Shown piece after piece: positions 5,471 through 63,799 of a stretch of 64,000 nt of DNA. This DNA is from Actinomycetes bacterium (GTDB taxonomy: Bacteria; Actinomycetota; Actinomycetes; S36-B12). The stretch is taken from contig OZ245718.1 in NCBI GenBank assembly GCA_965227045.1, positions 3,223,528 to 3,287,527 on the forward strand. Direction: 5' to 3'. The translations under genes and the position numbers were made by a program. The stretch's first letter is position 1. Each line of letters begins with the position of its first letter. The notes beneath the pieces were generated by a model. It saw only the letters and a program-made list of their open reading frames with translations, was not told where the DNA came from and made no database searches.

Positions 5471-5486
5471 TAGGACAGGTGACCTA
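5471..5486. promoter_or_regulatory. operator-like palindrome TAGGAC-N4-GTCCTA family (1 mismatch)
   Basis: TAGGACAGGTGACCTA, 21 nt upstream of the thiolase start (minus strand). Confidence 0.45.
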
Positions 5487-5703
5487 ACTCTACCAGTGCG
5501 GCCGCACTGGCGCTAGGCGCTGCGGGGGTTGACGATTGCCGTGTGAGCCGCCGCAGGGACCGTGGCCCATTCTCCGCGCGGAGCTTGCGGTCGACTCGTC
5601 AGGATGCGCCCGTCGAACCCACTCGGCTGGACTGCATGAGGGCGCAACATCTGCCATCGAGATTCTCAATGGTGCATCTTCCTAGAGCAGGTCCATAGTA
5701 GTT

Positions 5704-5719
5704 TAGGACGCACGTACTG
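5704..5719. promoter_or_regulatory. operator-like site, TAGGAC-N4-GTAC variant
   Basis: TAGGACGCACGTACTG upstream of SDR 5815. Shares the extended AGTAGTTTAGGACG.ACGTAC with the site at 25131. Confidence 0.45.
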
Positions 5720-5814
5720 GATCGAACTCAAACGTGGGCGTGGCTCTTGCCGTTGCACTGTGCCTCTCGCCCATGAAGTTGGGTTCACTTAATAGTCGTA
5801 AAGGGAGAGACCTC

Positions 5815-6561
5815 ATGACTGAAGAGAAGAAAGTCGTCCTCATCACAGGAGCCGGTCGCGGGTTGGGCAAAGCGACAGGCGTTCGCTTCGCAGCCTCGGG
5901 CTACACGGTGGTGATCACGGACGTCGACCCGGCGTCCGCGAAGCAGGCAGCCGAAGACATTGGGAATGGCGCTGTCGGTTGGGAACTTGACGTGCGCAAC
6001 CCCGAACAGGTTGAGGAAGTGTTTCGCCGGGTCGCCTCAGAACTCGGGCGATTGGACGTCCTCGTCAACAATGCTGGCCTTAGCAGGCCCACACCCACAC
6101 CGGAAGTGACGGAGGAAGACTGGCACAACTTGGTGGATATTTGTTTGGGTGGAACGTTCCGCTGTTCGAAGTTCGCATACCCGCTTCTCCTCAAGAGTGG
6201 AGGATCCGTCGTCAACATGTCATCGGGCGCGGGGACCATCGGTCACGGCGACCGAGCTTCCTACGCCGGCTCCAAGGCGGGTGTGATGGGCCTGACACGC
6301 GACTTGGCTGTCGAGTGGGCGAAAGACGGAATTCGAGTTAACGCGATTGCTCCTGGGGTCTTCATGACCGAGATGGTGAGGAGGAACGCTCGAGAGGGAA
6401 TATATGACCCCACCAAGATGTGCGCAGGCATCCCGATGGCGAGGTTCGGCGAAGAGTCTGAGATTGCCGACACGGTCTTCTTCCTCGCGGAGACTGCTAC
6501 GTACTTCACGGGGCAAGTTCTGCATTGCGACGGTGGCTTGTCGATCGGCCCGCATTGGTAA
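5815..6561 (+). CDS. SDR family oxidoreductase (paralog 2 of 3)
   Basis: ATG 5815 follows AAGGGAGAG; the ORF opens at 5734. TGAGRGLG, NNAG, YAGSK, ends CDGGLSIGPHW. Confidence 0.9.
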   Translation: MTEEKKVVLITGAGRGLGKATGVRFAASGYTVVITDVDPASAKQAAEDIGNGAVGWELDVRNPEQVEEVFRRVASELGRLDVLVNNAGLSRPTPTPEVTEEDWHNLVDICLGGTFRCSKFAYPLLLKSGGSVVNMSSGAGTIGHGDRASYAGSKAGVMGLTRDLAVEWAKDGIRVNAIAPGVFMTEMVRRNAREGIYDPTKMCAGIPMARFGEESEIADTVFFLAETATYFTGQVLHCDGGLSIGPHW

Positions 6562-6697
6562 CCCGCCTGTAGGGCAGGTGGGGCGTCAGGTTGGGCGAAT
6601 CGGACGTGACGCTCCACCAGTCATCTCGTGCGGCCTTCTAATCACTGGTATGTCAGATGGTCGAAGAACGCCACATTTCGGCGATGGGATGACCTGC

Positions 6698-9456: not shown

Positions 9457-9472
9457 TAGTACACGCGTCCTA
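9457..9472. promoter_or_regulatory. operator-like site (TAGTAC-N4-GTCCTA)
   Basis: TAGTACACGCGTCCTA in the divergent region between SDR 9368(-) and the TetR gene 9543(+). Confidence 0.45.
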
Positions 9473-9542: not shown

Positions 9543-10169
9543 ATGACACCCCGGGTTGGGCAGCGAGCGACTGTTCGCACTCATACGTCCGCACGTGCGT
9601 CAGCTACACGTAGCGCCATCGTCGAGGCGGCTACCGAGATCATTTCCGCGCGCGGATACGACGGCGCTTCGCTGCGTGAAATTTCCGATCGTGTCGGCAT
9701 CACTAAGGGCAATCTGACCTATCACTTCTCGGTCAAGGAGGAGTTGCTCTTCGCGATCATGGATGACGTTCACGACATCTTCCTCTTGTTCGCTCAGGAT
9801 TGGCCGAACCTCCGAGCCGACGATCCTGATGAGGCACTCCGAATCGCATTCCGGCAACACGTGGCATTGGTAACGAAGTATCCGGACGCCACGCGAATTT
9901 TCTACGAGTCCTTCCGGAACCTGACGTTTGATCATCGGGACGTCATTATTCGGAAGCGAGACAGATATGAGAAGGCGCTGCGGGTGCTCATCGCGAGGTG
10001 CCGACCGGAATTAGGTTCTCCCACCGGGCGTGAAGTCAGGTTGCGTGCACGTATTGTGATTGGGACATTGAGTTGGCCGTATGAATGGTTCGACCCAAAT
10101 GGGCCGTGGAAGGCTTCATACGTCAATGAAGTGACCGCGGACATGGCGGTTCGCGCGCTTCACGCGTAA
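9543..10169 (+). CDS. TetR/AcrR family transcriptional regulator
   Basis: 208 aa. N-terminal HTH ARGYDGASLREISDRVGITKGNLTYHF. The only regulator gene I can see in the window. Confidence 0.85.
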   Translation: MTPRVGQRATVRTHTSARASATRSAIVEAATEIISARGYDGASLREISDRVGITKGNLTYHFSVKEELLFAIMDDVHDIFLLFAQDWPNLRADDPDEALRIAFRQHVALVTKYPDATRIFYESFRNLTFDHRDVIIRKRDRYEKALRVLIARCRPELGSPTGREVRLRARIVIGTLSWPYEWFDPNGPWKASYVNEVTADMAVRALHA

Positions 10170-10225: not shown

Positions 10226-10241
10226 TAGGATGTTTGTCCTA
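10226..10241. promoter_or_regulatory. operator-like site (1 mismatch)
   Basis: TAGGATGTTTGTCCTA between the TetR stop (10169) and the SDR start (10305). Confidence 0.45.
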
Positions 10242-11205: not shown

Positions 11206-11221
11206 TGGGACGTTCGTCCTA
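11206..11221. promoter_or_regulatory. operator-like site (1 mismatch)
   Basis: TGGGACGTTCGTCCTA, 68 nt upstream of 11289. Confidence 0.4.
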
Positions 11222-11288: not shown

Positions 11289-12449
11289 GTGGCAGCAGTA
11301 GTGTCAGGAGTCGGAATCTTTCGGCCGGAGCCAGACTCGACGGCCGCCGAAGTCATGGCGATAGAGGCCGTTGTACGAGCGTGCGCCGATGCGGGTATTG
11401 ACCCTGCGGAGGTAGACGGCCTCGTCAAGTACAGTTACGACGGGTCAATCTCGACGATGGCGATGGCTCGAGAGTTGAACTCCCGAGAGTCTCGTTTCTC
11501 CATCGAGTTCCCACACGGCGGCGGGGCATCTGGCACGCTACTCGAGACGGCACGCATGGCCGTCGAGTCGGGCGTCGCGCAGAACGTGGTGTGCTTCCGA
11601 TCAGTGTCAGGCGATCTCTACAAGAAGCAACTCAACATGGCGGACTGGAACCGTCCGTACTATCTGGACACGGTCAACTACCTGCGTCGCGCGGGATTCA
11701 CGACATACCTGCACCTGTTCGCCCCTATTTTCGACGAGCACGCGCGTCGATATGGCACGACGAAGGAGACGTTGGGGCGCATCGCGATCGAGCTTCGGGA
11801 CAACGCGATTGCCTCGGGGAACCGATCTCCAGACGAAGCCCTCGACATGGCCGCTTACATGGCCGAGGCGCCGTATGTCGGTGAGCTCGGCGACTTGGAC
11901 GACTTTACGGTCATCGACGTAGCGTCCGCGTTCGTTGTTACCTCCGAGGAACGCGTCAGCGACAGGACCCGACCCGTAGTAGAAATCGTGGCGGCTGCTC
12001 AAAGCCACGGAACCAACCCGATGGGCTGGCACGACTTGATGCCGCTGAGCCCCACAGGTCTAGACAATCCCGCCCGTCACGTCGCTGACCGGCTGTGGGA
12101 GGACTCCGGCATGAGTCCCGACGATATCGACGTTGCCTGCCTTTACGATTGCACGTCGGTCACCTTCATGTATCTGCTCGAACAGACCGGCCTTTGCAAG
12201 GCAGGTTCAGTGCCGGAGCTGGTCGCGGACGCCGGAGTATTCAGTGCGACGGGAGCACGGCCAGCTAACCTCGACGGCGGTGATCTTGAAGCGGGCTACA
12301 CGCACGGGTTCCGTCATATCGTCGAAGCAGTGCAGCAGCTGCGTGCCACCTCGACCAACCAAGTGGTCAACGCCGAAACAGCGTTGGTCATGGGCGGGCC
12401 AGGAAGCGTCACTTCCGGAGCGGTGCTTCGACGAAAGGATCTCTCATGA
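11289..12449 (+). CDS. thiolase-fold (SCP-x/Ltp-type) protein lacking the thiolase nucleophile; Ltp2-like aldolase candidate
   Basis: 386 aa. Where Ltp 27900 has NNNCSTGSS this protein has HGGGASG, and its GHP motif reads GYTHG. The stop overlaps the DUF35 gene start (ATGA at 12446). Confidence 0.75.
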   Translation: MAAVVSGVGIFRPEPDSTAAEVMAIEAVVRACADAGIDPAEVDGLVKYSYDGSISTMAMARELNSRESRFSIEFPHGGGASGTLLETARMAVESGVAQNVVCFRSVSGDLYKKQLNMADWNRPYYLDTVNYLRRAGFTTYLHLFAPIFDEHARRYGTTKETLGRIAIELRDNAIASGNRSPDEALDMAAYMAEAPYVGELGDLDDFTVIDVASAFVVTSEERVSDRTRPVVEIVAAAQSHGTNPMGWHDLMPLSPTGLDNPARHVADRLWEDSGMSPDDIDVACLYDCTSVTFMYLLEQTGLCKAGSVPELVADAGVFSATGARPANLDGGDLEAGYTHGFRHIVEAVQQLRATSTNQVVNAETALVMGGPGSVTSGAVLRRKDLS

Positions 12450-12895
12450 GCAGTCTCGGTGCATGTCCGGTGGAGCGAGGCTTCACAGCAATCGCCAGAG
12501 ACTACCGAGACGTGATCCGCGAAAGTCGAGCACCGATTGTTCAAGCTTGCGTCAATTGCAATGCTGCGTACTGGCCCCCCAGGCTTCGCTGTTCGTGCGG
12601 CGCGGGTGATCTGCATTGGTTTCCGGCCGGGCCAACAGGTCGCATCGTGAGTACCGTGGGCGTCAAGATCGACCCCAATCAGGTGATCGAGCGAATGGTG
12701 CCGCGGCAATTCGTGGACCGCCTTCCTTACACGACAGTTGTCGTAGAGCCCCTGGATTGGGCCAATGTGCGCATGATGTTCCTGGCAGACGGGCTCGAGC
12801 TTACAAACTCCGAGACAGGTGCCACGGTCGCTTTGTCGGCCGAGGCCATCGACGAGAAGACCGTGACATTGATCGCTACCGCCGAGAAGGGTTGA
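12446..12895 (+). CDS. DUF35 OB-fold / zinc-ribbon protein
   Basis: 149 aa. CVNCNAAYWPPRLRCSCG zinc ribbon followed by an OB-like region. This is the classic partner position after a thiolase-fold gene. Confidence 0.8.
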   Translation: MSSLGACPVERGFTAIARDYRDVIRESRAPIVQACVNCNAAYWPPRLRCSCGAGDLHWFPAGPTGRIVSTVGVKIDPNQVIERMVPRQFVDRLPYTTVVVEPLDWANVRMMFLADGLELTNSETGATVALSAEAIDEKTVTLIATAEKG

Positions 12896-12899
12896 GAAG

Positions 12900-13943
12900 A
12901 TGACTGAGACTGTCGCCCGCCCAGCGGCCGGCCAGGTAGTTACAAAGCCGCCAACTCATAAGTACCACTGGGAGGATGGTGTCCCAGCGTCGTGGTACTG
13001 CGTGGCGTGGTCAGACGAGGTACGCGAGGACAGTGTGCTGGATCTGCGCTACTTCGGCGCCGACCTGATCTGCTTCCGATCCCCATCAGGAGAGGCGAGG
13101 GTCTTTGATGCGCACTGCCCGCACCTGGGCGCGCATCTCGGTGACGGTTGCATGATCGACGGTGAGGTTGAATGCCCCTTTCACGGGTGGCGATGGAATA
13201 GCGACGGCGAGAACACGCTCATTCCGTACGCAGAGAAGACCACACGTCGGACTCTGATCCCATGGCTCGTGCACGAAGTTAACGGAATGGTGTTCGTTTG
13301 GTATGACCCATCCGGCAGCGAACCGACGTGGCGTATCCCGGCGTACGAACAGCACGGCAGCGATGAGTACCTCAACTTCTATCCCGACTTCTGTCGGCGC
13401 TGGCCGGCTATGAAGCTTCATCCGCAGCAGAGCGTCGAGAACACGACCGACCCAGCGCACGTTACGTACGTGCATCATGCATCTGAGGTGCCTCTCATCT
13501 CTTGGCACGGCGCCGAGGGGCCTGTGTTCAAGACCGAAATGCGGTACGAGTGGGGAGGCGGCAAGCAGTCCACCTGGCTGACTCCAGATGGGCCTGTCGA
13601 TGGGGGGCTTCTAGCTGAATGTTGGGGAATCGGCTTCATCGCGACGACGTATATCGGGATCCATCCGACCATTCAGTTCACTGCTGTCACGCCTGTCGAC
13701 GAGCAGGGCAAGGAGAGCGTCTTCTTCAGCGCGATCACAGGCGCGAAAGGGAACTCCGGCAGGCTTAGTGGTCCCGAGTTCGCGCAGCGTCTCGCCGACT
13801 ACTTCTTCGAGCAAGTTTCGTCCGACGAGCCGATTTGGGCCCGCCAAACACTGATTGAGCATCCCCCATATCCGAAGTTGGAAGCCCGCGCATACGCTGA
13901 CATGCGCGCATGGGCAGCGACGTTCTACGGAGAAGAAAAGTGA
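12900..13943 (+). CDS. Rieske [2Fe-2S] non-heme iron oxygenase, KshA-like (alpha subunit only)
   Basis: 347 aa. CPHLGAHL...CPFHGWRW Rieske ligands and the ENTTDPAHVTYVHH mononuclear Fe motif. Confidence 0.85.
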   Translation: MTETVARPAAGQVVTKPPTHKYHWEDGVPASWYCVAWSDEVREDSVLDLRYFGADLICFRSPSGEARVFDAHCPHLGAHLGDGCMIDGEVECPFHGWRWNSDGENTLIPYAEKTTRRTLIPWLVHEVNGMVFVWYDPSGSEPTWRIPAYEQHGSDEYLNFYPDFCRRWPAMKLHPQQSVENTTDPAHVTYVHHASEVPLISWHGAEGPVFKTEMRYEWGGGKQSTWLTPDGPVDGGLLAECWGIGFIATTYIGIHPTIQFTAVTPVDEQGKESVFFSAITGAKGNSGRLSGPEFAQRLADYFFEQVSSDEPIWARQTLIEHPPYPKLEARAYADMRAWAATFYGEEK

Positions 13944-15508
13944 CTTCAGTACAGGCGCGGGCGCGACGCAGGATCGACGGGGTCTGGCCTACCTTGGACT
14001 TGGCTCGCGATGTCAATATCTGCAATGCAATCAGTAAGTCGATGCGTGCGATGCCGGACAAGACGGCGCTGGTGTTTGGCGACCAGCGAGTGACCTACTC
14101 AGAGCTGGACGCTGCGATACGGCGAGTGGGCGGGCAACTTCGAGCCGCCGGAATTGGCGAGGGCGAGTTCGTCGTGACGATCGGGCGCAGTTCAGCCCAT
14201 CTGCTCGTGCTGTACCTCGCGCTTGCACACATCGGAGCCGTCAATGTTCCGTTGAATCCATGGCTGACGACGCCGGAAGTGCTGGCGTTGATCGAGCGCA
14301 CGTCGCCGGCAGTGGTGATTCACACGTCGGAGTACGTCGAAATTTCTGCCGCGGCGAAGGACTCCGGATACGACGTCTTGACGATGCCGGAGACGCCTGC
14401 GGAACTAACTACGGAGGGCTGGTTCAACCCGTTCTCCGGCCCAGTTCCAGACGATCCCCCTGCCCCAGGAGGGTCTCGACCTGCGATGGTTGTGTTTACG
14501 TCGGGCTCGACGGCCCTGCCAAAAGGGTGCATTAAGAGCCACGAGAACCTCCTGTGGCACGTTGCGAACGGTCGGGTCAAGTGGCCCCGAACCGCGGACG
14601 ATGTCGAGTACTTCTGTGTACCGATGTCAGGGGTGGGGGTTGGCAACTTCCTTCTTCCCACGTTGGATGCAGGGGCAACTCTTGTGATCGACCGGCCGTC
14701 GGCTGAGTCCGGGGCAATCGTCGAGCGGGAACGTGTCTCCACGACGCTGCTGCCGCCTTCGGTAGCAGAGGCCATCTTGCTTTCGGAGGATGGAAAGGCT
14801 CGAGACTTCTCCCGCTTGCGAATTGTGTGGACCTCATTCCGGATCACTCACGAGGTACGCACCGCCTTCGTCGAGAGGGTTGGCCCGATCTTCCGATACG
14901 GATTTGGAATGACTGAAGGCAGTTTCGTCGCTGCGCCGGCCGACGTGTTCATTAGCAAGCCCACCTCCGCGGGCCCGCCCGATGGAGTCGACGAGATCGT
15001 TATCGGTGATCCGGAGACAGGCGCGCCGCTTCCCGTCGGAGAGAGCGGGGAAATCCTGATCAAAGGTCCCAGCGTGATGCTCGGCTACCTCGATGACCCG
15101 GACACCACAGCGGAAACCCTGCGTGGAGGCTGGCTCCATACGGGGGATCTCGGTCACATCGACGAGGACGGGCATATGCACTTCGATGGAAGGATTAAGG
15201 ACACGATCAAGACCGGTGGTCTGAACGTCTCGGCCGAAGAAGTCGAAGGCGTAATTACTACTCTGGTAGGCGTGAAGGACGTGGCCGTGATTGGAGTTCC
15301 GGACGACCACTGGGGCGAGGCCGTGCGAGCAGTCGTCGTGCTCGATGCTGGGAGTAGTTGGACGGAAGAGTCGATGATTCTCGAGCTTCGTAAGACCATG
15401 GCTGGCTACAAGACTCCGAAGTCGGTTGTATTCGCGTCGGAGCTGCCGCGCAATCCTGGCTTAGGAAAACTCGCAAAGGGTGAGATCGCAAAGATGTACG
15501 GCAGCTAG
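13940..15508 (+). CDS. acyl-CoA synthetase (AMP-forming)
   Basis: GTG 13940 overlaps the upstream stop (GTGA); the ORF opens at 13910. FTSGSTALPKG, GWLHTGDLGHIDEDGH, IKTGG. Confidence 0.85.
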   Translation: MTSVQARARRRIDGVWPTLDLARDVNICNAISKSMRAMPDKTALVFGDQRVTYSELDAAIRRVGGQLRAAGIGEGEFVVTIGRSSAHLLVLYLALAHIGAVNVPLNPWLTTPEVLALIERTSPAVVIHTSEYVEISAAAKDSGYDVLTMPETPAELTTEGWFNPFSGPVPDDPPAPGGSRPAMVVFTSGSTALPKGCIKSHENLLWHVANGRVKWPRTADDVEYFCVPMSGVGVGNFLLPTLDAGATLVIDRPSAESGAIVERERVSTTLLPPSVAEAILLSEDGKARDFSRLRIVWTSFRITHEVRTAFVERVGPIFRYGFGMTEGSFVAAPADVFISKPTSAGPPDGVDEIVIGDPETGAPLPVGESGEILIKGPSVMLGYLDDPDTTAETLRGGWLHTGDLGHIDEDGHMHFDGRIKDTIKTGGLNVSAEEVEGVITTLVGVKDVAVIGVPDDHWGEAVRAVVVLDAGSSWTEESMILELRKTMAGYKTPKSVVFASELPRNPGLGKLAKGEIAKMYGS

Positions 15509-17400: not shown

Positions 17401-17416
17401 TAGGACGCCCGTCCTG
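17401..17416. promoter_or_regulatory. operator-like site (1 mismatch)
   Basis: TAGGACGCCCGTCCTG in the divergent region 17337-17667. Confidence 0.4.
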
Positions 17417-17521
17417 CACGAGATCTGCTGTAAGAAGAGTCAATCTGCTGGAAGAAGGGTCTTCAGGTTACTGAGCAGCTGCGTCCCGAATCCAGCCGAG
17501 AACGCTGAACCGGGTCGCCGG

Positions 17522-17537
17522 TAGGACGTCAGGCCTA
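17522..17537. promoter_or_regulatory. operator-like site (1 mismatch)
   Basis: TAGGACGTCAGGCCTA in the divergent region 17337-17667. Confidence 0.4.
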
Positions 17538-17633
17538 CTCGTCGGAAGAGTCTTTCCCGAAAAATTCCTAGGTGATGCCGGATTGTTATGTCGAAACGAG
17601 GGTTGATATGGCAAGGTGCTTCACACGAGTCCG

Positions 17634-17649
17634 TAAGACGGGCGTCCTA
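17634..17649. promoter_or_regulatory. operator-like site (1 mismatch)
   Basis: TAAGACGGGCGTCCTA ends 18 nt before ATG 17668. The geometry matches the sites before SBP paralogs 31012 and 35806. Confidence 0.5.
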
Positions 17650-25130: not shown

Positions 25131-25146
25131 TAGGACGGACGTACCA
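25131..25146. promoter_or_regulatory. operator-like site, TAGGAC-N4-GTAC variant
   Basis: TAGGACGGACGTACCA, 37 nt upstream of SDR 25184. Its extended flank matches the site at 5704. Confidence 0.45.
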
Positions 25147-26803: not shown

Positions 26804-26819
26804 CAGGACCCGCGTCCTA
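26804..26819. promoter_or_regulatory. operator-like site (1 mismatch)
   Basis: CAGGACCCGCGTCCTA in the 185-nt gap before the crotonase gene at 26973. Confidence 0.45.
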
Positions 26820-27827: not shown

Positions 27828-27899
27828 GCAACCAAGCAACTACCCGCCCCAGAATCGACAAGCGATGGGTCATACACAAGGAAGCAAGGAGGAAGGCTC

Positions 27900-39325: not shown

Positions 39326-39368
39326 GTCCTCGGTCGGGCGTCCTATTCGTGGCGCCCTAGCAGCTAGC

Positions 39369-43408: not shown

Positions 43409-45805
43409 ATGCAGGATTCGTCGGTCCGCGGTGTTTCGACTAGCACGCCGGACGGCATCATCCGTAATCGGCAGGTGGACATGGCGAAGTTGGAGCCGGG
43501 GGCGTGGGACGGTCGGGGGCTTCCGTACCTTCCGCAGATCGATTTGCGTATCGATCCGAGCCTGAAGCTCCACACGGGGTTCGATCTTGATGTCGATCCG
43601 ATCACCTACCAAGTGCTGCGGTCTCGGTTCTGGAACTTGAATCTGGACCACTCGGACACCATCAAGCGGATGTCGGGCTCGGCCGTCGTCGTCTACATGG
43701 ACGACCTGAATACCTCGTTGCTCACGGAGAACGGCGACACGATCGTAGCTGGGCCGTCAATTCAGTACTTCACGGGTCATGGGGACTTGGTAGTGAAGTG
43801 GACTCTGGAGAACCGCAGCGCAAACCCGGGCATCGAAGATGGAGATGTGTTCCTGCAGAACGACCCCTATATCGGCACGGCTCACCAAAACGACGTGATG
43901 ACGTATGCCCCGATCTTCTGGGAGGGAGCACTCTTCTGCTGGGTACTTAGCGCCACGCACGTCGGGGATATTGGGGGGACCCAGCCTGGAGGGTTCTGCC
44001 CCGATGCTCCCGACATCTTCAGCGAAGCCACACCAGTCCCTCCTATCAAGTTCGTCCGTGCCGGAATTCCGCAAGACGACGTCGTGGACATGTTCGCGCG
44101 CAAGAGTCGTGCTCCCGATCAGATCCGACTTCAGTTACGCAGCCAGCTCGCAGGCCTTCGCCTCACTCGTGAGCGGATCCACGAGATGCTGGAGGAGTAC
44201 GGCCCCTTGGTCGTCAAGGGCACGATGCGCGCGATGATCCGTGACTGCTCTGAGGCGGTGGGTCGTCGTCTGGAACAGATTCCCGACGGGGAGTGGACAG
44301 AGACCCTGTACATCGCCAATGTGGCGCCTGGCGATCGTGCGGTCCACCGTCTCGTCACGACGGTTCGCAAGGAGGGCGACAGGCTCTACCTCACCAATGA
44401 GGGCAGCGATCCCCAGTTCGGCGCTGGTAACGCACCTTTCACGGCGTGGCGCTCCAGCCTCATGTGCGCGGGGGCGGCCCTGTTTGGCTACGACCAGTTC
44501 AACTGCCCCGCCGGAGTCGTTGACCATATGGAGTTCTTGCCGATACCCGGCACCATGACCTGCGCGCGGTACCCCGCAGCCGTGACGACTCCGGCCGCAT
44601 CGCTTGTCATTGTCTACTTGGCGAGTCAGGTCCTGAGCAAGATGGCGCTCGCCGGACCGCCTGATGTGCGAAAGACCGCGAACGCGACGGGTGGTACATC
44701 CTGCCCCAGTTTCTGGGTAGGCGTAGGACTGGACCGAAAAGGCAGGTTCGTCGCGGAGGTGCCCGGAGACCCCCTTGCAGGTTCTATCGGGGCATTTCCC
44801 GATCGCGACGGCGTCGATACCGGCGGCGCGTGGTGGTGGCCGAATTCCAACGCTGGCAACGTCGAGAACTGGGAGGCCGCCTCACCGATCCTGTATCTGT
44901 TCCGCCGTGAGCAGGCCGACAGCGGCGGTGCCGGGCTCTGGCGCGGCGGCAACGGACTCGAACTCTGTGTCGTTCCGCACAAGACTGAGCAGTTCACAGC
45001 ACAGATCGTTTCCAATGATCCCGCGATCAACACGTCCGCTGGCCTCGCAGGTGGGATGCCTGGTCACCCGGGAAACCACCTCGCCAGTCTGGGCTCGTCG
45101 ATTCAGGAGGGGTTCAAGGCGGGCAAGCTGCCGGCCTCGCGGGCTGAACTCGAGGAGGCGTTTGGAGCAATGCGTCGGCTCGATCCCAAGACCGTTGCCC
45201 AACTAGACAGCAGCGACGTCCTTCTTGTGGGCTTTAGCGGTGGAGGAGGATACGGCGATCCATTGCTACGGAAAGTTGATCTCGTGGTGTCTGATCTCGC
45301 CCGCGGCCAGATCAGCGATGAGCATGCGCGCACTCACTTCGGTTGTGTCGTCGAGCGCGGCGAGGTCGACGTTGTGGCCACCGAGCGGTACCGGTCCAGG
45401 GTCGTTCGGTCGCGATTAGACCATTCCCGCTTGCGCGTCACGGAAATCGACGGCTTCTCCGAACTCGCGAAGGTTCGACGAGTGTCGGAGCTACTCGGAA
45501 TCAGCTTCGAGTCGGATGTCCCTCAGTGGGCGTGTTGTGGGTGCGGTCAGCTGCTCGGAAGTGCTGATGCGAACTTCAAGGACGGGACTTGTATCAACGA
45601 GGCGAGCCCATTCGATATCGATCCCGTGGCCTATCCGAATCCGGCGGACTTCTGTGACGTTCCCTTCGTGCTTCGCAGGTATCTGTGTCCCTCGTGCGGT
45701 GTGTGCCTCGGTTCCGAATGCGCTGCTACCGAGGATCCGCCAGCACACGACATGAAGCTTCTGCCCGCCGGCCTTCGCGCACTCGCCCAAACCGTAAACC
45801 TATGA
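43409..45805 (+). CDS. hydantoinase B/oxoprolinase (HyuB)-family subunit with C-terminal Cys-rich gamma-subunit-like domain, copy 1
   Basis: 798 aa. ATG follows AAGAGGAGG. HyuB-type blocks (NDPYIGTAHQNDV, GGAGLWRGGNG). C-terminal WACCGCG...NFKDG...RRYLCPSCGVCLGSE. Confidence 0.8.
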   Translation: MQDSSVRGVSTSTPDGIIRNRQVDMAKLEPGAWDGRGLPYLPQIDLRIDPSLKLHTGFDLDVDPITYQVLRSRFWNLNLDHSDTIKRMSGSAVVVYMDDLNTSLLTENGDTIVAGPSIQYFTGHGDLVVKWTLENRSANPGIEDGDVFLQNDPYIGTAHQNDVMTYAPIFWEGALFCWVLSATHVGDIGGTQPGGFCPDAPDIFSEATPVPPIKFVRAGIPQDDVVDMFARKSRAPDQIRLQLRSQLAGLRLTRERIHEMLEEYGPLVVKGTMRAMIRDCSEAVGRRLEQIPDGEWTETLYIANVAPGDRAVHRLVTTVRKEGDRLYLTNEGSDPQFGAGNAPFTAWRSSLMCAGAALFGYDQFNCPAGVVDHMEFLPIPGTMTCARYPAAVTTPAASLVIVYLASQVLSKMALAGPPDVRKTANATGGTSCPSFWVGVGLDRKGRFVAEVPGDPLAGSIGAFPDRDGVDTGGAWWWPNSNAGNVENWEAASPILYLFRREQADSGGAGLWRGGNGLELCVVPHKTEQFTAQIVSNDPAINTSAGLAGGMPGHPGNHLASLGSSIQEGFKAGKLPASRAELEEAFGAMRRLDPKTVAQLDSSDVLLVGFSGGGGYGDPLLRKVDLVVSDLARGQISDEHARTHFGCVVERGEVDVVATERYRSRVVRSRLDHSRLRVTEIDGFSELAKVRRVSELLGISFESDVPQWACCGCGQLLGSADANFKDGTCINEASPFDIDPVAYPNPADFCDVPFVLRRYLCPSCGVCLGSECAATEDPPAHDMKLLPAGLRALAQTVNL
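43410..43680 (+). repeat. near-identical tract shared with 46298..46568
   Basis: Over 271 nt I find one mismatch by eye (43518 G versus 46406 A). The offset between copies is 2888 nt. Confidence 0.85.
45525..45783 (+). repeat. near-identical tract shared with 48413..48671
   Basis: Over 259 nt I find one mismatch by eye (45667 C versus 48555 T). Same 2888-nt offset. Confidence 0.85.
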
Positions 45806-46131
45806 GAGAGATGGTTCCGATGACGGTCCTTGAAGTCGTACAGATTGACGTCCTACCCGGCCACGAGGAGGAGTTCGAGGCAGTCCTCCTCGACGTCGGA
45901 AAGGCCTTGCTGTCCGACGCTCAGGGTTTCGTCGAGTTCAACGCCTATGGGTGGGGAGTCGAGAGGCCGTCTGTCTACCTCTTCTCCGTTCGCTGGCAAA
46001 CAGTCGCCGACCATGTCGCGGCCAGCGCTAGCGACCGCTTCGCGCAGTGGCGTGACCTCATGGTGCCGCACTTCGCGGCTCGACCAGTCGCGGAGCACTT
46101 CCAGCTTCGGGAGGATGGGGAGTCTGCCTAG
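45802..46131 (+). CDS. ABM (antibiotic-biosynthesis-monooxygenase/Dabb) fold protein
   Basis: ATG 45802 overlaps the upstream stop (ATGA); alternative ATG at 45820. VLEVVQIDVLPGHEEEFE...YLFSVRWQTVADHV...FAQWRDLMVPHF...EHFQL is a typical ABM pattern. Confidence 0.6.
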   Translation: MREMVPMTVLEVVQIDVLPGHEEEFEAVLLDVGKALLSDAQGFVEFNAYGWGVERPSVYLFSVRWQTVADHVAASASDRFAQWRDLMVPHFAARPVAEHFQLREDGESA

Positions 46132-46209
46132 TCCAGGGCTCCCTACTTCGAGCGAAACCCCAAACGTACTTGCCGTTCGCCTCGTGCCCTGAAATGCTAC
46201 TTCAGGATG

Positions 46210-46225
46210 TAGGACAAATGTCCTA
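46210..46225. promoter_or_regulatory. perfect TAGGAC-N4-GTCCTA palindrome
   Basis: TAGGACAAATGTCCTA, 71 nt upstream of the start of HyuB-like copy 2. Confidence 0.6.
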
Positions 46226-46296
46226 GATTGCAGTCCATACGATTCGTCGCCCGGTTGAGTCCAATCGCGGACTCAAGGCTTCTTGGAGGATTCTTG

Positions 46297-48690
46297 TTGC
46301 AGGATTCGTCGGTCCGCGGTGTTTCGACTAGCACGCCGGACGGCATCATCCGTAATCGGCAGGTGGACATGGCGAAGTTGGAGCCGGGGGCGTGGGACGG
46401 TCGGGAGCTTCCGTACCTTCCGCAGATCGATTTGCGTATCGATCCGAGCCTGAAGCTCCACACGGGGTTCGATCTTGATGTCGATCCGATCACCTACCAA
46501 GTGCTGCGGTCTCGGTTCTGGAACTTGAATCTGGACCACTCGGACACCATCAAGCGGATGTCGGGCTCACCCATCGTCATCTACATGGACGACTTCAATA
46601 CCTCGTTGCTCACGGAGAACGGCGACACCATCGTCTCGGGGCCGTCGGTCCAGTACTTCACGGGTCATGGGGACTTGGTAGTGAAGTGGACTCTGGAGAA
46701 CCGCAGCGCAAACCCGGGCATCGAAGACGGAGACATTTTCCTGCAGAACGACCCTTACATTGGGACTGAACATCAGATGGATGTGATGACCTACGCCCCG
46801 ATCTTCTGGGAGGGAGCGCTCTTCTGCTGGGTGCTCAGCAACGCGCACATCGGAGACATCGGGGGCACCGAACCGGGGAGCTTCTGTCCGCAAGCACCCG
46901 ACATCTTCAGCGAGGCCACACCAGTCCCCCCGATCAAGCTTGCGCGTGCTGGGGTCCTGCAGGAGGACGTCGTGGACATGTTCGCGCGCAAGAGCCGAAC
47001 GCCCGACCAGGTCCGACTACAACTCCGTAGCCAGTTGGCGGGGCTCCGTGTGACCCGTGAGCGGATCCACGAGATGCTGGAGGAGTACGGCCCCTTGGTC
47101 GTCAAGGGCACGATGCGCGCGATGATCCGTGACTGCTCTGAGGCGGTGGGTCGCCGTCTGGAACAGATTCCCGACGGGGAGTGGACAGAGACGCTGTACA
47201 TCGGAAGTGCCTCGCCAGGTGACAGGGGCGTGCATCGAATCTCGACGACGGTTCGCAAGGAGGGCGACAGGCTCTACCTCACCAATGAGGGCAGCGATCC
47301 CCAGTTCATGTCAGCAAGCGCGCCGTTCTCGGCGTGGCGCTCGAGCCTCATGTGCGCGGGGGCGGCCCTGTTTGGCTACGACCAGTTCAACTGCCCCGCT
47401 GGAGTGGCAGATCACATGGAGTTCTTGCCGATACCCGGCACCATGACCTGCGCGCGGTACCCCGCAGCAGTGGGAACCCTGACCGCTGCCCTGCTCACGG
47501 TCTACCTGGCGAGTCAGGTCCTGAGCAAGATGGCGCTCGCCGGACCGCCGAATGTGCGAAAGACCGCGAACGCCAGCGGTGGTATTTCATGCCCGAGCTT
47601 CTGGGTAGGCGTGGGACTGGACCGCAATGGCAAGTTCGTCGCTGAGTCGCCGGGTGACCCCACCGCCGGTTCTATCGGGGCATTTCCCGATCGCGACGGT
47701 ATCGATACCGGCGGCGCGTGGTGGTGGCCGAATTCCAACGCTGGCAACGTCGAGAACTGGGAGGCCGCCTCACCGATCCTGTATCTGTTCCGCCGTGAGC
47801 AGGCCGACAGCGGCGGTGCCGGGCTCTGGCGCGGCGGCAACGGTATTCAGGTTTGCGTCATCCCCCATAAGACGACGAACTTCACGGCAATGATCGTTTC
47901 GAATGACCCGGCGATCAACACATCAGCTGGTCTCGCAGGTGGGATGCCCGGCCACCCGGGAAACCATCTAGCGAGTATGGGGTCCTCCATCAGAGAACTA
48001 TTTGGAGATGGCAAACTCCCTGCTTCCAGATCGGACTTGGAAGACGTTTTCGGGACGATGACGCGCATCGACCCCAAGACGGTATCCGGGCTAACAGACG
48101 CGGATGTCCTCGTAATCGATTTCAGTGGTGGCGGGGGGTACGGCGATCCTTTGCTTCGCGAGCTCGACCACGTCGCTTCGGACCTCGAGCATGGCTTGAT
48201 CAGTGAGGACCACGCGCGAGAGCATTATGGAGTCGTCGTCGACAGCGGCGTCCTCGACGTAGGGGCCAGCGAGTTTCAGCGCGTACAAGCCGTCCAAGTG
48301 CGCATGAGCCGTTCGCGGCCTCCGATCTCTCCAGTGCTGGGTTCTGTCGACGCCTCCCGGGTTCGGCCCTTGTCAGGAGCCTTGGGCGTCAGCTTTGAGC
48401 GCGGCTCCGCGGAGTGGGCGTGTTGTGGGTGCGGTCAGCTGCTCGGAAGTGCTGATGCGAACTTCAAGGACGGGACTTGTATCAACGAGGCGAGCCCATT
48501 CGATATCGATCCCGTGGCCTATCCGAATCCGGCGGACTTCTGTGACGTTCCCTTTGTGCTTCGCAGGTATCTGTGTCCCTCGTGCGGTGTGTGCCTCGGT
48601 TCCGAATGCGCTGCTACCGAGGATCCGCCAGCACACGACATGAAGCTTCTGCCCGCCGGCCTTCGCGCACTTGCCGAAGCCGCGTCCTAA
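46297..48690 (+). CDS. HyuB-family subunit with C-terminal Cys-rich gamma-subunit-like domain, copy 2
   Basis: TTG 46297 follows GGAGGA and is colinear with ATG 43409 of copy 1; the ORF opens at 46228. Same length core and same C-terminal Cys motifs. Confidence 0.8.
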   Translation: MQDSSVRGVSTSTPDGIIRNRQVDMAKLEPGAWDGRELPYLPQIDLRIDPSLKLHTGFDLDVDPITYQVLRSRFWNLNLDHSDTIKRMSGSPIVIYMDDFNTSLLTENGDTIVSGPSVQYFTGHGDLVVKWTLENRSANPGIEDGDIFLQNDPYIGTEHQMDVMTYAPIFWEGALFCWVLSNAHIGDIGGTEPGSFCPQAPDIFSEATPVPPIKLARAGVLQEDVVDMFARKSRTPDQVRLQLRSQLAGLRVTRERIHEMLEEYGPLVVKGTMRAMIRDCSEAVGRRLEQIPDGEWTETLYIGSASPGDRGVHRISTTVRKEGDRLYLTNEGSDPQFMSASAPFSAWRSSLMCAGAALFGYDQFNCPAGVADHMEFLPIPGTMTCARYPAAVGTLTAALLTVYLASQVLSKMALAGPPNVRKTANASGGISCPSFWVGVGLDRNGKFVAESPGDPTAGSIGAFPDRDGIDTGGAWWWPNSNAGNVENWEAASPILYLFRREQADSGGAGLWRGGNGIQVCVIPHKTTNFTAMIVSNDPAINTSAGLAGGMPGHPGNHLASMGSSIRELFGDGKLPASRSDLEDVFGTMTRIDPKTVSGLTDADVLVIDFSGGGGYGDPLLRELDHVASDLEHGLISEDHAREHYGVVVDSGVLDVGASEFQRVQAVQVRMSRSRPPISPVLGSVDASRVRPLSGALGVSFERGSAEWACCGCGQLLGSADANFKDGTCINEASPFDIDPVAYPNPADFCDVPFVLRRYLCPSCGVCLGSECAATEDPPAHDMKLLPAGLRALAEAAS
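46298..46568 (+). repeat. near-identical tract shared with 43410..43680
   Basis: See the partner feature at 43410..43680. Confidence 0.85.
48413..48671 (+). repeat. near-identical tract shared with 45525..45783
   Basis: See the partner feature at 45525..45783. Confidence 0.85.
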
Positions 48691-55072: not shown

Positions 55073-55116
55073 TCTGGTCGTATATCTAGGACTACGGTCC
55101 TAGATATACGACCAGA
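55073..55116. promoter_or_regulatory. 44-bp perfect palindrome containing a perfect TAGGAC-N4-GTCCTA core (55087..55102)
   Basis: TCTGGTCGTATATCTAGGAC-TACG-GTCCTAGATATACGACCAGA: 20-bp arms with a 4-nt centre. Lies in the divergent region between SBP 54929(-) and amidase 55402(+). Confidence 0.65.
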
Positions 55117-55312: not shown

Positions 55313-55328
55313 TAGGACGGGCGTGCTA
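55313..55328. promoter_or_regulatory. operator-like site (1 mismatch)
   Basis: TAGGACGGGCGTGCTA, 73 nt upstream of amidase ATG 55402. Confidence 0.45.
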
Positions 55329-57019: not shown

Positions 57020-57166
57020 TCGCAGTACCTATCCACGTCCGGGGCTGAGAAGGCGAAACTCTTGGGTCGCGCGTGCCAGTCTCGGTGGCTCGTGACAAAC
57101 GCGTGATCGGGCTCCCGCGCGGGTCCGGAGCGCCCTAAATTGGGGGAACTGTTGTCCAACATCGCG

Positions 57167-58147
57167 ATGACTGCGGCAGAGATGGTGGAATACCTCGATG
57201 CGTCCCCGGTGGCTGCATTCGGGACCATTCTGGCTGGTGGTCTGCCTTACGTAGAGCCGTCGTCCTATGTGCGCGACGGGCGCGAAATCTACATGACTGC
57301 GAACCGCCAAGTAGAACCGGTTCGCATGACTCACAGCGAGGCAATGGAGTTCCTCTCGAACTACCGCCATCCACACGTAGGGACGCCGCTGCTCCTCTCT
57401 GCAGCGACGGTGCGCAAAGACGGCACGTGCTATGTCTCTCCATTGGGTTTGTATTGGGACGGCAGCCACGTCTACTTCCACCTGTTGGAGAGTAGGTCGA
57501 TGCTCCTTCGCCTGGAGCGAAACCCACGTATAGCTATAGCCACCTTCACGAGAGATTTTCCGCTGAGAGCGGTTGCCGTAGAAGGCGTTGCCGTCAGGGT
57601 TGCGAAGGACGACCCGGCGCAGGCCTATTCTCACGAAATCGTCCGGCAGAATTTCGAGTCTCCCGTGTACGCCGGGCTTCTCGCTGCAGACGCCCTCGAC
57701 AATCACGAGGCTATTCCGTCGATTCTGTTCCGCATTGAACAACGGAGCATGGTCGCTTGGGACGAGTCCAAGCGTCCGACCGCGGTCACCTCGGCAGCGC
57801 AGACGCGGATCGCTGACACAGCTCGTATCTTCATGTCGATGACTACGACCCACATGCCGTTGCAGGTCTTCAATGCCGTAGGCGATGCGGAGAGAGTTGA
57901 AGATGCCGAGGAAGCGACTAGGTGGGCCGCACTCATTCAGGAACGTCATTGCCGCCTTACGGCAAAGCCGCTGCTCGTCCACGAGCCGACTCTGGAACGA
58001 AGCGTCTTCAAGGTGACACTGGACAAGGTCATGGCTTGGGATCAAGCCAAGGACGTCTCGACCTTCGAGGACGGCTCGGGTGCGGCCGACACCGTTGCCC
58101 CGTGGGTATCTGCGAGCGAACTCTGGCGCACAGATGCTGGGAAATGA
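57167..58147 (+). CDS. atypically long PPOX-like split-barrel protein (hypothetical)
   Basis: The ORF opens at TTG 57140, with ATG at 57167. Contains MTHSEAMEFL...DGTCYVSPLGLYWDGSHVYFHL...NPRIAIATF plus partial repeats of the same pattern. Codon usage favours this strand over the antisense ORF. Confidence 0.45.
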   Translation: MTAAEMVEYLDASPVAAFGTILAGGLPYVEPSSYVRDGREIYMTANRQVEPVRMTHSEAMEFLSNYRHPHVGTPLLLSAATVRKDGTCYVSPLGLYWDGSHVYFHLLESRSMLLRLERNPRIAIATFTRDFPLRAVAVEGVAVRVAKDDPAQAYSHEIVRQNFESPVYAGLLAADALDNHEAIPSILFRIEQRSMVAWDESKRPTAVTSAAQTRIADTARIFMSMTTTHMPLQVFNAVGDAERVEDAEEATRWAALIQERHCRLTAKPLLVHEPTLERSVFKVTLDKVMAWDQAKDVSTFEDGSGAADTVAPWVSASELWRTDAGK

Positions 58148-58175
58148 AGAACACACTGACAACGAAGAAGGGGCG

Positions 58176-61710: not shown

Positions 61711-61726
61711 TAGTACGTACGTCCAA
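61711..61726. promoter_or_regulatory. operator-like site (degenerate)
   Basis: TAGTACGTACGTCCAA in the divergent region 61674-61827. Confidence 0.35.
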
Positions 61727-61827
61727 TTTTCTGTAGTATTTCACAACGCATCAGATGATCCGAGTCCACAGCTTCGCGCGCGTCCGGAGCGGTATTGGTG
61801 GACAACGACATTTCACACGGAGGTGCC

Positions 61828-62640
61828 ATGACCGGTCGTGCCATAAGGGTGCAGGGATCTCTCGATCTTTGGATGGGAGGATCGGTGACTTCATCAACTA
61901 GATGCATACTTGCTCCGAATCCTTCTGCGATGACCCTAGAAGGCACCAACACGTGGCTCCTGGGCGCTCCAGGGAGCAGTAGGACTGTCGTCGTCGATCC
62001 AGGCCCGGACGAGCAGGAACACCTCGATGCAATTGCCGACACGGCAGCCGGAACAGTCGCGGAAATACTGCTCACTCACGGCCATGCCGATCACTCCGCG
62101 GGCGCACGTTCACTGGCTCAGCGGCTCGGAGTTCGTGTCCGTGCTATGGATCCGCAGCACCAGCTCGGGTCAGAGGGGTTGGTTGGTGGAGATGTCCTCG
62201 ACCTAGGGGAGTGGGTCATCGAGGTGGTCGCTACTCCGGGGCATAGCACGGACAGTTTGTGCTTCGTCATCCCACACGAGGGCGCGATTCTGACGGGCGA
62301 CACGGTGCTAGGAAGAGGCCCGTCGGTCGTCGACTGGCCAAACGGGAATCTCCGCGACTATCTCGACAGCCTGCGTCTGCTGCGTGACGTTGTTGCGGTT
62401 CGAAACGTGGGTGCTTTGCTGCCTGGACATGGTCCCGCGCTCTCGGATCCCGGAGGTGTCATAGACGCGTACTTGGAGCACCGAAGTTTGCGCTTGAGCG
62501 CAGTGCAAGCCGCACTGGATTCCGGCATTCGCGAACCATTAGACATCGTCCGTCGCGTCTATGCTGACGTTCCAGAGGCAGCCTGGCCATACGCCGAGAT
62601 GTCGGTTCGAGCCCAGTTGGAATACCTCTCGGGGCTGTAA
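61828..62640 (+). CDS. MBL-fold metallo-hydrolase
   Basis: ATG 61828 follows GGAGG; the ORF opens at TTG 61795. LLTHGHADHSAGA, TPGHSTDSL, LPGHG. Confidence 0.8.
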   Translation: MTGRAIRVQGSLDLWMGGSVTSSTRCILAPNPSAMTLEGTNTWLLGAPGSSRTVVVDPGPDEQEHLDAIADTAAGTVAEILLTHGHADHSAGARSLAQRLGVRVRAMDPQHQLGSEGLVGGDVLDLGEWVIEVVATPGHSTDSLCFVIPHEGAILTGDTVLGRGPSVVDWPNGNLRDYLDSLRLLRDVVAVRNVGALLPGHGPALSDPGGVIDAYLEHRSLRLSAVQAALDSGIREPLDIVRRVYADVPEAAWPYAEMSVRAQLEYLSGL

Positions 62641-62673
62641 AGCCAAGCCAGGCTGAGGTCTGCCCATTAAGCC

Positions 62674-63672
62674 TCACGGCCACGAGATGACAACTTTTCC
62701 GATCTGGCGCCCTGAGGCCATGTATTCATACGCCTGCATCGCCTCTGCGAAACGGAAGGTGCGGTCGATCACGGGGGATATGCGATGCTCGATCAGAAAG
62801 GCGAGCATTGACTCGAAGTGCGCCCTTGACCCCACTAGGACGCCCTGAAGGTCCACGGCCCGAACGGCAAGCTCGGAAGGGTCAATCGTTCCAGCGGCGA
62901 GACCTCCGATCAGGGAAATCTTGCCTCCAACCTTGCAGGCCTTGATCGAGCCGCTGACAGATGCACCGCCAACCGTCTCGACCACGTTGTCGACTCCCTG
63001 ACCGTCGGTCAGTTCACGGACCTTGGCCGGCCACTTGTCGTCACGCTGATCCACGACTGCTACCGCTCCCAGGCTCGACAAAGTGGGGAACTTGGCGGGC
63101 GTGGTCGACGTTGCGATCACGTGTGCGCCTCGCGCCAACGCAAACTGGAGCGCGAATATCGAGACGCCTCCGGAGCCTTGGACCAAGACACAATCGCCGG
63201 CTTCGATCTGGCCGACTGCGTTCCACGCGGTTACCGCCGCACAGGGAAGGGTCGCGGCACTTCGAGGATCGACGCCGTTTGGGATCTTCACGGTGCCTTC
63301 GGCGGAAAGTAGGCAGTACTCCGCGAGCACGCCGTCCCTGGTCCCTCCCAGAGCAGAGCTGAGGTACTCCTTCTTGATTGGTCCATCGATCCACGACTGG
63401 AAGAATGTGCCCGCGACCATGTCACCTGGTGACACGCGCTGCGCACCCGGTCCGCACGACACCACTTCGCCAACGCCGTCCGATAACGGGACGAAGCCAT
63501 CGATGCGGCTGTACGTTCCGTCCTTAACCCCCCGGAGCATGATTAGGTCTCGATAGTTGAGGGACGCGGCCCGTAGTCGGACTAGGACCTCTCCCGGGCC
63601 CGGGGTCGGCATCTCTTCGTCGACGGTTTCTACTCCGTATGCACCCTGCGACGTGAACCGATATGCCTTCAT
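62674..63672 (-). CDS. MDR-family NAD(P)-dependent oxidoreductase (quinone-oxidoreductase-like)
   Basis: ATG 63672 follows AAGGAGA; the ORF is open to 63759. GEVLVRLRAASLNYRDL and GSGGVSIFALQFA. Confidence 0.85.
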   Translation of the reverse strand: MKAYRFTSQGAYGVETVDEEMPTPGPGEVLVRLRAASLNYRDLIMLRGVKDGTYSRIDGFVPLSDGVGEVVSCGPGAQRVSPGDMVAGTFFQSWIDGPIKKEYLSSALGGTRDGVLAEYCLLSAEGTVKIPNGVDPRSAATLPCAAVTAWNAVGQIEAGDCVLVQGSGGVSIFALQFALARGAHVIATSTTPAKFPTLSSLGAVAVVDQRDDKWPAKVRELTDGQGVDNVVETVGGASVSGSIKACKVGGKISLIGGLAAGTIDPSELAVRAVDLQGVLVGSRAHFESMLAFLIEHRISPVIDRTFRFAEAMQAYEYMASGRQIGKVVISWP

Positions 63673-63783
63673 CCGTGATCTCCTTTGGACGGACAACGTC
63701 GAAGCGATAAGGCTCGAGACGCGCGCCAACTCGCCTTTTCCACGCCCTATTGTGCACACCGGTCGGAATGCCGACTCACCCGG

Positions 63784-63799
63784 TAGGACGGATGGCCTA
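63784..63799. promoter_or_regulatory. operator-like site (1 mismatch)
   Basis: TAGGACGGATGGCCTA in the divergent region 63673-63849. Confidence 0.4.

Follow-up and report, generated by a model that had tools for sequence, protein, structure and literature searches.

A palindromic candidate TetR operator before the transcription units of an actinobacterial catabolic gene cluster

In mycobacteria, the TetR-family regulator KstR (Rv3574) has 16–31 motif instances and a regulon of 74–83 genes of lipid and steroid catabolism (PMC1995591). Here we describe a locus for which KstR appears to be the closest functional analogue: a 64,000-nucleotide stretch of the genome of an Actinomycetes bacterium (assembly GCA_965227045.1, contig OZ245718.1, positions 3,223,528 to 3,287,527; hereafter, the window), in which a TetR-family regulator gene (9543–10169, plus strand) lies among catabolic operons preceded by copies of the 16-bp palindrome TAGGAC-N4-GTCCTA. 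As for KstR, the regulator would be an autoregulated TetR-family repressor, with a short palindrome that recurs in the intergenic DNA of many operons grouped near the regulator gene, and the regulon contents overlap, comprising fad, ech, ltp, KshA-like and transporter genes. However, the KstR box is the 14-bp TnnAACnnGTTnnA rather than a 16-bp palindrome and uptake in the KstR regulon is by Mce4 (PMC1995591), whereas the window encodes ATP-binding cassette (ABC) systems that depend on substrate-binding proteins (SBPs) and adds hydantoinase/carboxylase-like enzymes and amidases. The KstR box has no match in the window, and KstR is not among the best 60 of 112 Protein Data Bank (PDB) sequence matches of the window TetR. 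Membership in a KstR regulon was rejected because the box is absent and the regulator is no Rv3574 orthologue.

Another steroid-related regulator, KstR2 (Rv3557c), is a HIP-CoA-responsive TetR repressor of a steroid-catabolic subregulon, and its box has the consensus AnCAAGnnCTTGnT. The window TetR can be aligned with KstR2 over nearly its full length (residues 17–196, E = 8e-9, 38.5 bits to PDB entry 4w97), but the similarity is weak and the recognition helix is different. No match to this KstR2 consensus occurs in the window, and with only distant similarity to Rv3557c, membership in a KstR2 regulon was also rejected. The original prediction, made from the sequence of this DNA, had described a KstR-like architecture without the KstR box and had not recognized the operator as a described one. 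Both statements hold: the KstR and KstR2 boxes are missing, and the literature, NCBIfam and PDB searches returned no earlier description. Other resources, such as RegPrecise, might hold one, and the consensus appears to be undescribed. Near neighbors in sequence space are the NemR box, TAGACC-N4-GGTCTA, and, for the recognition helix, that of QacR, SKGNLYYHF.

Two structurally characterized regulators bear on how such a site could be read. AibR (PDB 5K7F/5K7H/5K7Z) binds isovaleryl-CoA in its C-terminal domain and uses Lys and Tyr of helix α3 to bind a near-perfect palindrome (PMC5389471). It differs from the system described here in its operator, ACCTACCG-N2-CGGTAGGT, and in that its DNA binding is ligand-dependent; its base-reading Tyr51 aligns with Thr58 of the window TetR and its Gly49 with Asn56, and these altered residues are consistent with recognition of a different half-site. 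DarR binds a 5-N4-5 palindrome (ATACT-N4-AGTAT), in which the Lys-Gly of helix α3 reads T-x-C (PMC10636190). With TCC in GTCCTA and K54-G55 in the window TetR, a DarR-like reading of T-x-C is plausible, although the half-site sequence is different and DarR and QacR each occupy 20–28 bp with a pair of dimers.

We consider it quite probable that TAGGAC-N4-GTCCTA is the operator for the product of the TetR-family gene at 9543–10169, acting as a repressor. Five perfect copies, starting at 30978, 35770, 39310, 46210 and 55087, are present in the window, compared with 0.02 expected from dinucleotide-preserving shuffles, none of which (0/100) reached five; these copies had been listed in the original prediction, and our motif search reproduced every one exactly. 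With up to two mismatches allowed, the count rises to 22, against an expectation of 1.2, and the shuffles gave at most five. Twenty of the 22 fall within the approximately 5 kb of intergenic DNA, ∼8% of the window. The remaining two matches, at 57252 in a PNPOx-like gene and at 61980 in a metallo-β-lactamase (MBL) gene, have two mismatches each and are at chance level. Since all 13 three-mismatch matches are within coding sequence, the boundary between real sites and background is sharp. About fifteen degenerate copies had also been proposed, and 14 of these were recovered at two or fewer mismatches; the other, 35746 (TAGGACTGTCGTTTAC), has a perfect left half-site and four mismatches in the right half and counts only as a half-site; the perfect copy at 35770 lies 24 bp further downstream. 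A further intergenic copy that had not been listed, with two mismatches, starts at 39330, 20 bp past 39310. After correction of start codons, all real sites are intergenic, as had been claimed.

The motif is confined to its two arms. When 19 sites and their 12-bp flanks were aligned, the information content was restricted to the two 6-bp half-sites, with the flanks at background and the spacer showing a weak preference for G at its first position (G7) and C at its fourth (C10). An unbiased enumeration of 5-N(0–12)-5 palindromes identified TAGGAC-N4-GTCCTA as the sole one enriched in intergenic DNA. In ungapped comparisons of site pairs, flank identity averaged 22.9/80 and reached a maximum of 40/80 for 17634 and 30978, which both precede paralogous SBP genes. 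Two side observations concern individual copies. The sites at 5704 and 25131, with two mismatches each, have a common left flank (AGTAGTT) and a variant right arm (GTAC), both precede genes for short-chain dehydrogenases/reductases (SDRs), and were probably duplicated along with their promoters. In addition, the perfect operator at 55087 is the center of a perfect 40-bp palindrome (55075–55114, tggtcgtatatcTAGGACtacgGTCCTAgatatacgacca), a dyad far longer than those of the other copies, which may accommodate two dimers or a second factor.

How are the sites placed relative to genes? We built a gene map from open reading frames (ORFs), codon-position GC content and Pfam and NCBIfam scans of ∼57 ORFs, correcting four starts in the process: the first SBP gene begins at ATG 17668, which has a GGAG ribosome-binding site in front of it; the SDR gene after the TetR gene begins at ∼10305; HydB2 begins at TTG 46297, from alignment to its 83%-identical paralogue; and the last ORF begins at GTG ∼63850. 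From 3.5 kb to the right end of the window at 64 kb there are 21 transcription units, and all 21 have at least one upstream site, which bears out the claim that sites stand before almost every unit. The distance from the end of the site to the start codon is 14–153 nt. Before the three group-A SBP paralogues, which are 59–74% identical, the site ends 18, 18 and 20 nt from the ATG, matching the 18–20 nt given originally. Divergent pairs share sites (5471/5704, 9457, 17401–17634, 39097–39330, 55087/55313, 61711 and 63784). The first 5.4 kb of the window lack any site, and the last site is ∼200 bp from the right end, beyond which the regulon may continue. The locus had been called an island; it is indeed a gene cluster, but its base composition does not suggest that it is foreign, and the word is therefore loose.

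Which protein would read these sites? The 208-amino-acid window TetR, the proposed repressor, consists of a TetR_N helix-turn-helix (HTH) domain (PF00440, E = 1.2e-13, residues 26–72) and a C-terminal TetR_C_24 ligand-binding/dimerization domain (PF17932, E = 3.7e-22, residues 93–206), and its recognition helix is G-I-T-K-G-N-L-T-Y-H-F. No other regulator gene was found in Pfam scans of the ∼57 window ORFs, in agreement with the original prediction, and the gene is bracketed, as had been noted, by the sites at 9457 (70 nt upstream) and 10226 (56 nt downstream). The proposed autoregulation thus gains support from the positions of both sites, with 9457 as the predicted autoregulatory one. The window TetR is a rare protein: a database of 5.8 billion sequences contains seven homologues at E < 1e-10, the best of them 61% identical, and the best match in a collection of species-representative genomes is a Mycobacterium TetR with 44% identity, whose genes nearby are different. 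By sequence, the best PDB relatives are 3vpr, 3dcf and AibR (5K7F), with E = 2e-21 to 1e-15; KstR2 is more distant. The alignments with 3vpr and 3dcf, like that with KstR2, run over the full length of the protein or nearly so. NCBIfam and PDB searches identified no characterized equivalog for this protein or for the Lachnospiraceae and 3DPJ-like TetRs described below. Because the closest solved relatives include the acyl-CoA-responsive AibR and KstR2, the ligand of the TetR_C_24 domain is most likely a CoA-thioester intermediate of the pathway.

The palindrome is found near related regulators in other organisms. We compared the window with loci and contigs from genome and metagenome collections (L-numbers below). 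On three of four contigs with TetR homologues that are 55–61% identical, the motif lies beside the TetR gene or beside a gene cassette common to these loci. L001 (TetR 55% identical) and L002 (60%) encode TonB-dependent receptors and are therefore probably Gram-negative. Both contain the block of Ltp-like thiolase, DUF35 and KshA-like Rieske genes that occupies 11289–13943 in the window. The block is kept next to the TetR gene in all three, and the cassette regions are 11289–15508 in the window, 4458–8715 in L001 and 13241–15867 in L002; the AMP-ligase gene directly follows the block in the window and L001 and is elsewhere on the contig in L002. In L001, a perfect TAGGACGATCGTCCTA (4412) precedes the cassette's thiolase-like gene by 46 nt and a second (10807) lies between the TetR gene and a gene for a KshB-like reductase. 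L002 contains four copies with 0–1 mismatches, all intergenic and ahead of operons, with the cassette site at 13136, and L159 (TetR 61% identical) contains a perfect copy (856) 107 nt past the TetR stop codon. A site just after the TetR gene recurs in the window (10226), L001 (10807), L159 (856) and the Mycobacterium locus L003 (10751). The suggested check for conservation in relatives was therefore positive, with perfect copies kept before the cassette or just after the TetR gene on three contigs with 55–61%-identical TetRs. As a side observation, the L001 cassette is accompanied by the KshB-like reductase gene and a gene of the sodium/bile-acid symporter family.

A wider sample ties the motif to the recognition helix. 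Among 82 loci with TetR genes resembling the window TetR in the HTH, all 17 with the helix KGNLTY[HY]F contain TAG(G/T)AC-N4-GT(C/A)CTA (two or fewer mismatches) in a promoter-like position, often in tandem. At one mismatch or fewer within 3 kb, the motif is present at 11 of these 17 loci and at none of the 65 with other helices (Fisher p = 9e-10). The positive loci span Actinomycetota, Gammaproteobacteria and Lachnospiraceae, and this distribution across phyla and unrelated contexts argues that the motif follows the DNA-reading helix and not gene context. In the Gammaproteobacteria L035, L057, L060 and L074, tandem pairs lie 20 bp apart, like 39310/39330 in the window. In Lachnospiraceae metagenome-assembled genomes (L007, L009, L010, L012, L015 and L017), one or two palindrome copies precede operons encoding a MatE efflux protein and a TetR, with tandem sites 24–69 nt before the operon (in L009, sites at 8524 and 8554 and the MatE start at 8593). 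The Lachnospiraceae TetR has a PF13972 C-terminal domain and only the HTH in common with the window protein.

A reverse search with the exact 16-mer TAGGACGATCGTCCTA yielded 76 metagenome contigs. Contrary to expectation, a KGNLTYHF regulator is encoded on none of these 76. About three-quarters have no detectable TetR, and many are chance coding matches or very short contigs. At least 10 of the 76 (L083, L088, L108, L109, L121, L124, L131, L141, L152 and L158) carry a second TetR clade, with the helix [IL]SRGNFY[YFH]HF and the gene 4–150 nt from the site; on most of these, a second copy with one or no mismatch lies 20–37 bp away. This second clade (RGNFYYHF) is homologous to an uncharacterized structural-genomics PDB entry, 3DPJ, and in L141 its gene is divergent from an OsmC-like gene. 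The two helix types share (K/R)-G-N-x-x-Y-H-F.

If the window TetR binds the palindrome, how would the cluster be controlled? A TetR homodimer would sit on each 16-bp dyad, with one HTH per 6-bp half-site, and the Lys-Gly pair of the helix T-K-G-N-L-T-Y-H-F would probably read T-x-C of GTCCTA, as for DarR. Binding at or just downstream of promoters would block initiation or early elongation at 21 or more transcription units, comprising ∼55 genes over at least 58 kb, and the repressor would also limit its own synthesis. After substrate uptake and activation, a CoA-thioester would bind the TetR_C_24 domain and release the repressor. Two dimers may assemble on the tandem sites and on the 40-bp palindrome around 55087, as happens with DarR and QacR. 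That the protein physically binds the DNA, that it represses rather than activates and what its ligand is are all points that we infer, and the inducer logic and ligand class are less certain than the pairing of TetR and operator.

Several points weigh against this assignment. TetR homologues that are 38–44% identical and have altered helices (KGHLTYYF in L004; P0006–P0008) showed no motif, on contigs of mostly ∼1 kb. A scan for sigma-70 promoters and terminators from 25 to 44 kb scored no higher than shuffled sequence, and none of the sites coincided with a consensus promoter. Such a scan is uninformative for this organism, and overlap between operator and promoter in the window is at most presumptive; by our own reading, a candidate promoter in L001, TTGTCA-17-TATCGA, ends a few bases before the perfect site at 4412, which would then cover the transcription start. 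The palindrome also does not seem to be exclusive to TetR proteins. In L116 (10282–11215; a contig of 35% GC resembling the candidate phyla radiation), four copies of TAGGACGATCGTCCTA with 0–1 mismatch flank a 223-amino-acid ORF that looks like a regulator with a PaaX/Cas2-like domain and not a TetR, and the palindrome may be used there by another protein family. Further, our count of regulators covers the 64-kb window, and a paralogous regulator with the same helix is conceivable outside it. Finally, the related AibR binds DNA only with its ligand (PMC5389471), which makes the direction of the ligand effect uncertain.

It is possible, though in our view unlikely, that a regulator whose gene lies beyond the window binds the palindrome, either a TetR paralogue with the same helix or a member of another family, and that the local TetR controls only its neighbors or nothing. 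Sequence alone names no protein, the survey ends with the window, and the same 16-mer occurs with at least two other TetR clades and at the non-TetR locus in L116. Against this, the local TetR has exactly the helix type that is associated with the motif, sites bracket its own gene and three of the four contigs with its closest homologues keep the motif at the TetR gene or the cassette. As the sole regulator gene of the window, with homologous loci that keep the motif and a helix associated with it, the local TetR is supported at the level of sequence as the single dimeric regulator that the original prediction proposed for the whole cluster.

A second alternative, which we consider distinctly improbable, keeps this TetR and operator and reverses the logic, such that a CoA-thioester acts as a co-repressor needed for binding and shuts the pathway off by feedback. 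AibR, among the closest solved relatives, provides the precedent, as it binds its operator only with isovaleryl-CoA (PMC5389471). However, the regulon would be a catabolic one, with uptake, CoA activation, β-oxidation-like and oxygenase steps, for which derepression by the substrate or an intermediate is usual, as with KstR (PMC1995591).

There is very little to be said for an RNA-level element in which a 6-bp stem and 4-nt loop in the 5′ untranslated region affect translation, stability or termination. Several copies do precede the start codon by 14–20 nt, immediately ahead of the ribosome-binding site, and 35770 scored as terminator-like on the minus strand. In the mismatched copies, however, the dyad is mostly broken on one arm (variants include GACCTA, GGCCTA, which occurs three times, TAGTAC, TAAGAC and GTGCTA) with the partner arm unchanged; a few copies give G-U wobbles, and in no copy is there a compensating change. 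We rejected the hairpin because of this absence of compensatory changes, and the uncompensated one-arm mismatches fit independent protein contacts to each half-site. Single sites also serve divergent pairs on both strands, some sites are 139–153 nt upstream of the gene and the motif co-varies with the type of DNA-binding helix across phyla. Last, a dispersed repeat, such as a miniature inverted-repeat transposable element (MITE) or REP-like sequence, or promoter copies inherited with duplicated genes and lacking regulatory meaning, can be dismissed, since, despite a paralogue-rich cluster (3 + 2 SBPs, two HydB, two KshA-like proteins and many SDRs) and the 40/80 identities retained by the flanks of 17634 and 30978, flanks are unconserved on average with near-zero information outside the 16 bp, neither terminal repeats nor target duplications are present, leading us to reject the MITE identity that had been named as a check, and the motif is conserved next to TetR genes in other phyla.

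What might a TetR of this kind control? By Pfam and NCBIfam assignments, transport in the cluster involves five to six Peripla_BP_4 SBPs and two ABC systems. The CoA-related enzymes comprise three CoA ligases, pairs of acyl-CoA dehydrogenase (ACAD) and APH proteins, enoyl-CoA hydratase (ECH), ChsH-like MaoC hydratases and four Ltp- or thiolase-like proteins, one with a DUF35 partner. Also encoded are two KshA-like Rieske oxygenases, many SDRs, two amidases, two hydantoinase-B/acetone-carboxylase-γ fusions and one hydantoinase-A, these being weakly caprolactamase- or acetophenone-carboxylase-like, as well as one 2-oxoglutarate (2OG) oxygenase, one cupin and one thiamine pyrophosphate (TPP) enzyme. 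With its CoA ligase, ACADs, KshA-like Rieske oxygenase and amidase, the set is reminiscent of a hydroxylation-dependent cluster proposed for the bile-salt side chain in Sphingomonadaceae (bioRxiv 10.1101/2021.06.24.449856), which is a resemblance only.

Taken together, these data allow a two-part proposal that we put forward tentatively, as one that may well fail. The first part is a transferable code, in which at least three otherwise unrelated TetR clades with (K/R)-G-N-(L/F)-(T/Y)-Y-H-F all use TAGGAC-N4-GTCCTA: the TetR_C_24 acyl-CoA-type regulators, the MatE-linked regulators of Lachnospiraceae and Gammaproteobacteria and the OsmC-linked 3DPJ-like regulators, with tandem pairs often 20–37 bp apart. 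The second is that the tightly co-regulated ∼55 genes, from an actinobacterium-like lineage with no member in the species-representative collection, constitute an undescribed pathway for the degradation of a steroid-like or alicyclic carboxylate/lactam substrate, which would use the cassette of Ltp-type aldolase, DUF35 protein, KshA-like Rieske oxygenase and CoA ligase and recall the Sphingomonadaceae bile-salt side-chain route. The common operator is the strongest available clue that these ∼55 catabolic genes, whose annotation is poor, serve a single pathway. The proposed regulon map, with one repressor, ∼20 operators and 21 transcription units, is experimentally tractable, and the repressor and operator would be a clean pair for synthetic biology. 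The pairing of operator and helix (KGNLTYHF or RGNFYYHF) recurs across phyla and could predict targets of uncharacterized TetRs; if the helix code is true, the operators of many orphan TetRs could be predicted. A TetR repressor with a multi-operon catabolic regulon is of an already known, conventional kind that is not mechanistically surprising and leaves the understanding of TetR regulation unchanged. What appears to be new is the operator sequence, common to several TetR clades.

The individual putative operators, called from sequence with mismatches counted against TAGGAC-N4-GTCCTA, begin at the left with 5471–5486 (one mismatch), 20 nt upstream of a minus-strand thiolase gene (4290–5450) in an operon with an MDMPI gene, and 5704–5719 (two mismatches), 14 nt upstream of an SDR gene (5734–6561). 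Around the TetR gene, 9457–9472 (one mismatch) separates minus-strand SDR and acyl-CoA synthetase genes from the divergent TetR gene, and 10226–10241 (one mismatch), past the TetR stop codon, is upstream of the SDR gene that starts at ∼10305. The site at 11206–11221 (one mismatch) is 67 nt upstream of the Ltp-like thiolase/DUF35/KshA-like Rieske oxygenase/AMP-ligase operon. Three sites with one mismatch each follow: 17401–17416, 64 nt upstream of a minus-strand SDR/DLH operon; 17522–17537, upstream of an SBP/ABC operon; and 17634–17649, which ends 18 nt before the SBP ATG at 17668, with the operon extending to ∼25062. Next are 25131–25146 (two mismatches), 37 nt upstream of an SDR gene at 25184, and 26804–26819 (one mismatch), 153 nt upstream of an operon (26973–30816) encoding ECH, a thiolase-like protein, a ChsH-like hydratase pair and an SDR.

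In the central part of the window, the perfect operator 30978–30993 ends 18 nt before the SBP ATG at 31012, in an operon with the 2OG oxygenase, cupin and TPP enzyme, and the half-site at 35746 together with the perfect operator at 35770 (35746–35785) ends 20 nt before the ATG (35806) of an SBP paralogue. The site at 39097–39112 (one mismatch) is 15 nt upstream of a minus-strand KshA-like oxygenase gene (38047–39081). The tandem operators at 39310–39345, with perfect 39310 and two-mismatch 39330 starting 20 bp apart, precede an operon for an ABC ATPase, permease, SBP and HydB1 (39369 onward), and perfect 46210–46225 is 71 nt upstream of the HydB2 TTG in the HydB2-HydA operon. On the right, perfect 55087–55102 is 139 nt upstream of a minus-strand SBP/amidase/EamA operon, 55313–55328 (one mismatch) is 73 nt upstream of an amidase gene at 55402, and 61711–61726 (two mismatches) lies between a divergent TIM-barrel gene (minus) and the MBL gene (plus). 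The last site, 63784–63799 (one mismatch), has a minus-strand zinc-dependent alcohol dehydrogenase gene 24 nt away and, on its other side, the plus-strand ORF with GTG at ∼63850.

We also note some features of the genes themselves. A minus-strand ORF at 57029–58162 was rejected as spurious, as it is Arg-rich, has no Pfam match and overlaps the plus-strand PNPOx-like gene at 57140–58147. At 37038–37972 (minus strand), downstream of the KshA-like gene in an operator-bearing unit, an SDR gene is split into two frames, with 113 amino acids in the N-terminal part and 198 in the C-terminal part. The break, which precedes the LVNNAGV motif, marks either a pseudogene or a frameshift introduced in the assembly. 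Finally, the tandem hydantoinase-B/acetone-carboxylase-γ fusion genes (43409–48690) are 83% identical, with the first ∼65 residues nearly identical, and between them lie a small ABM-domain gene (45811–46132) and an operator copy, an arrangement that points to a recent duplication or gene conversion.

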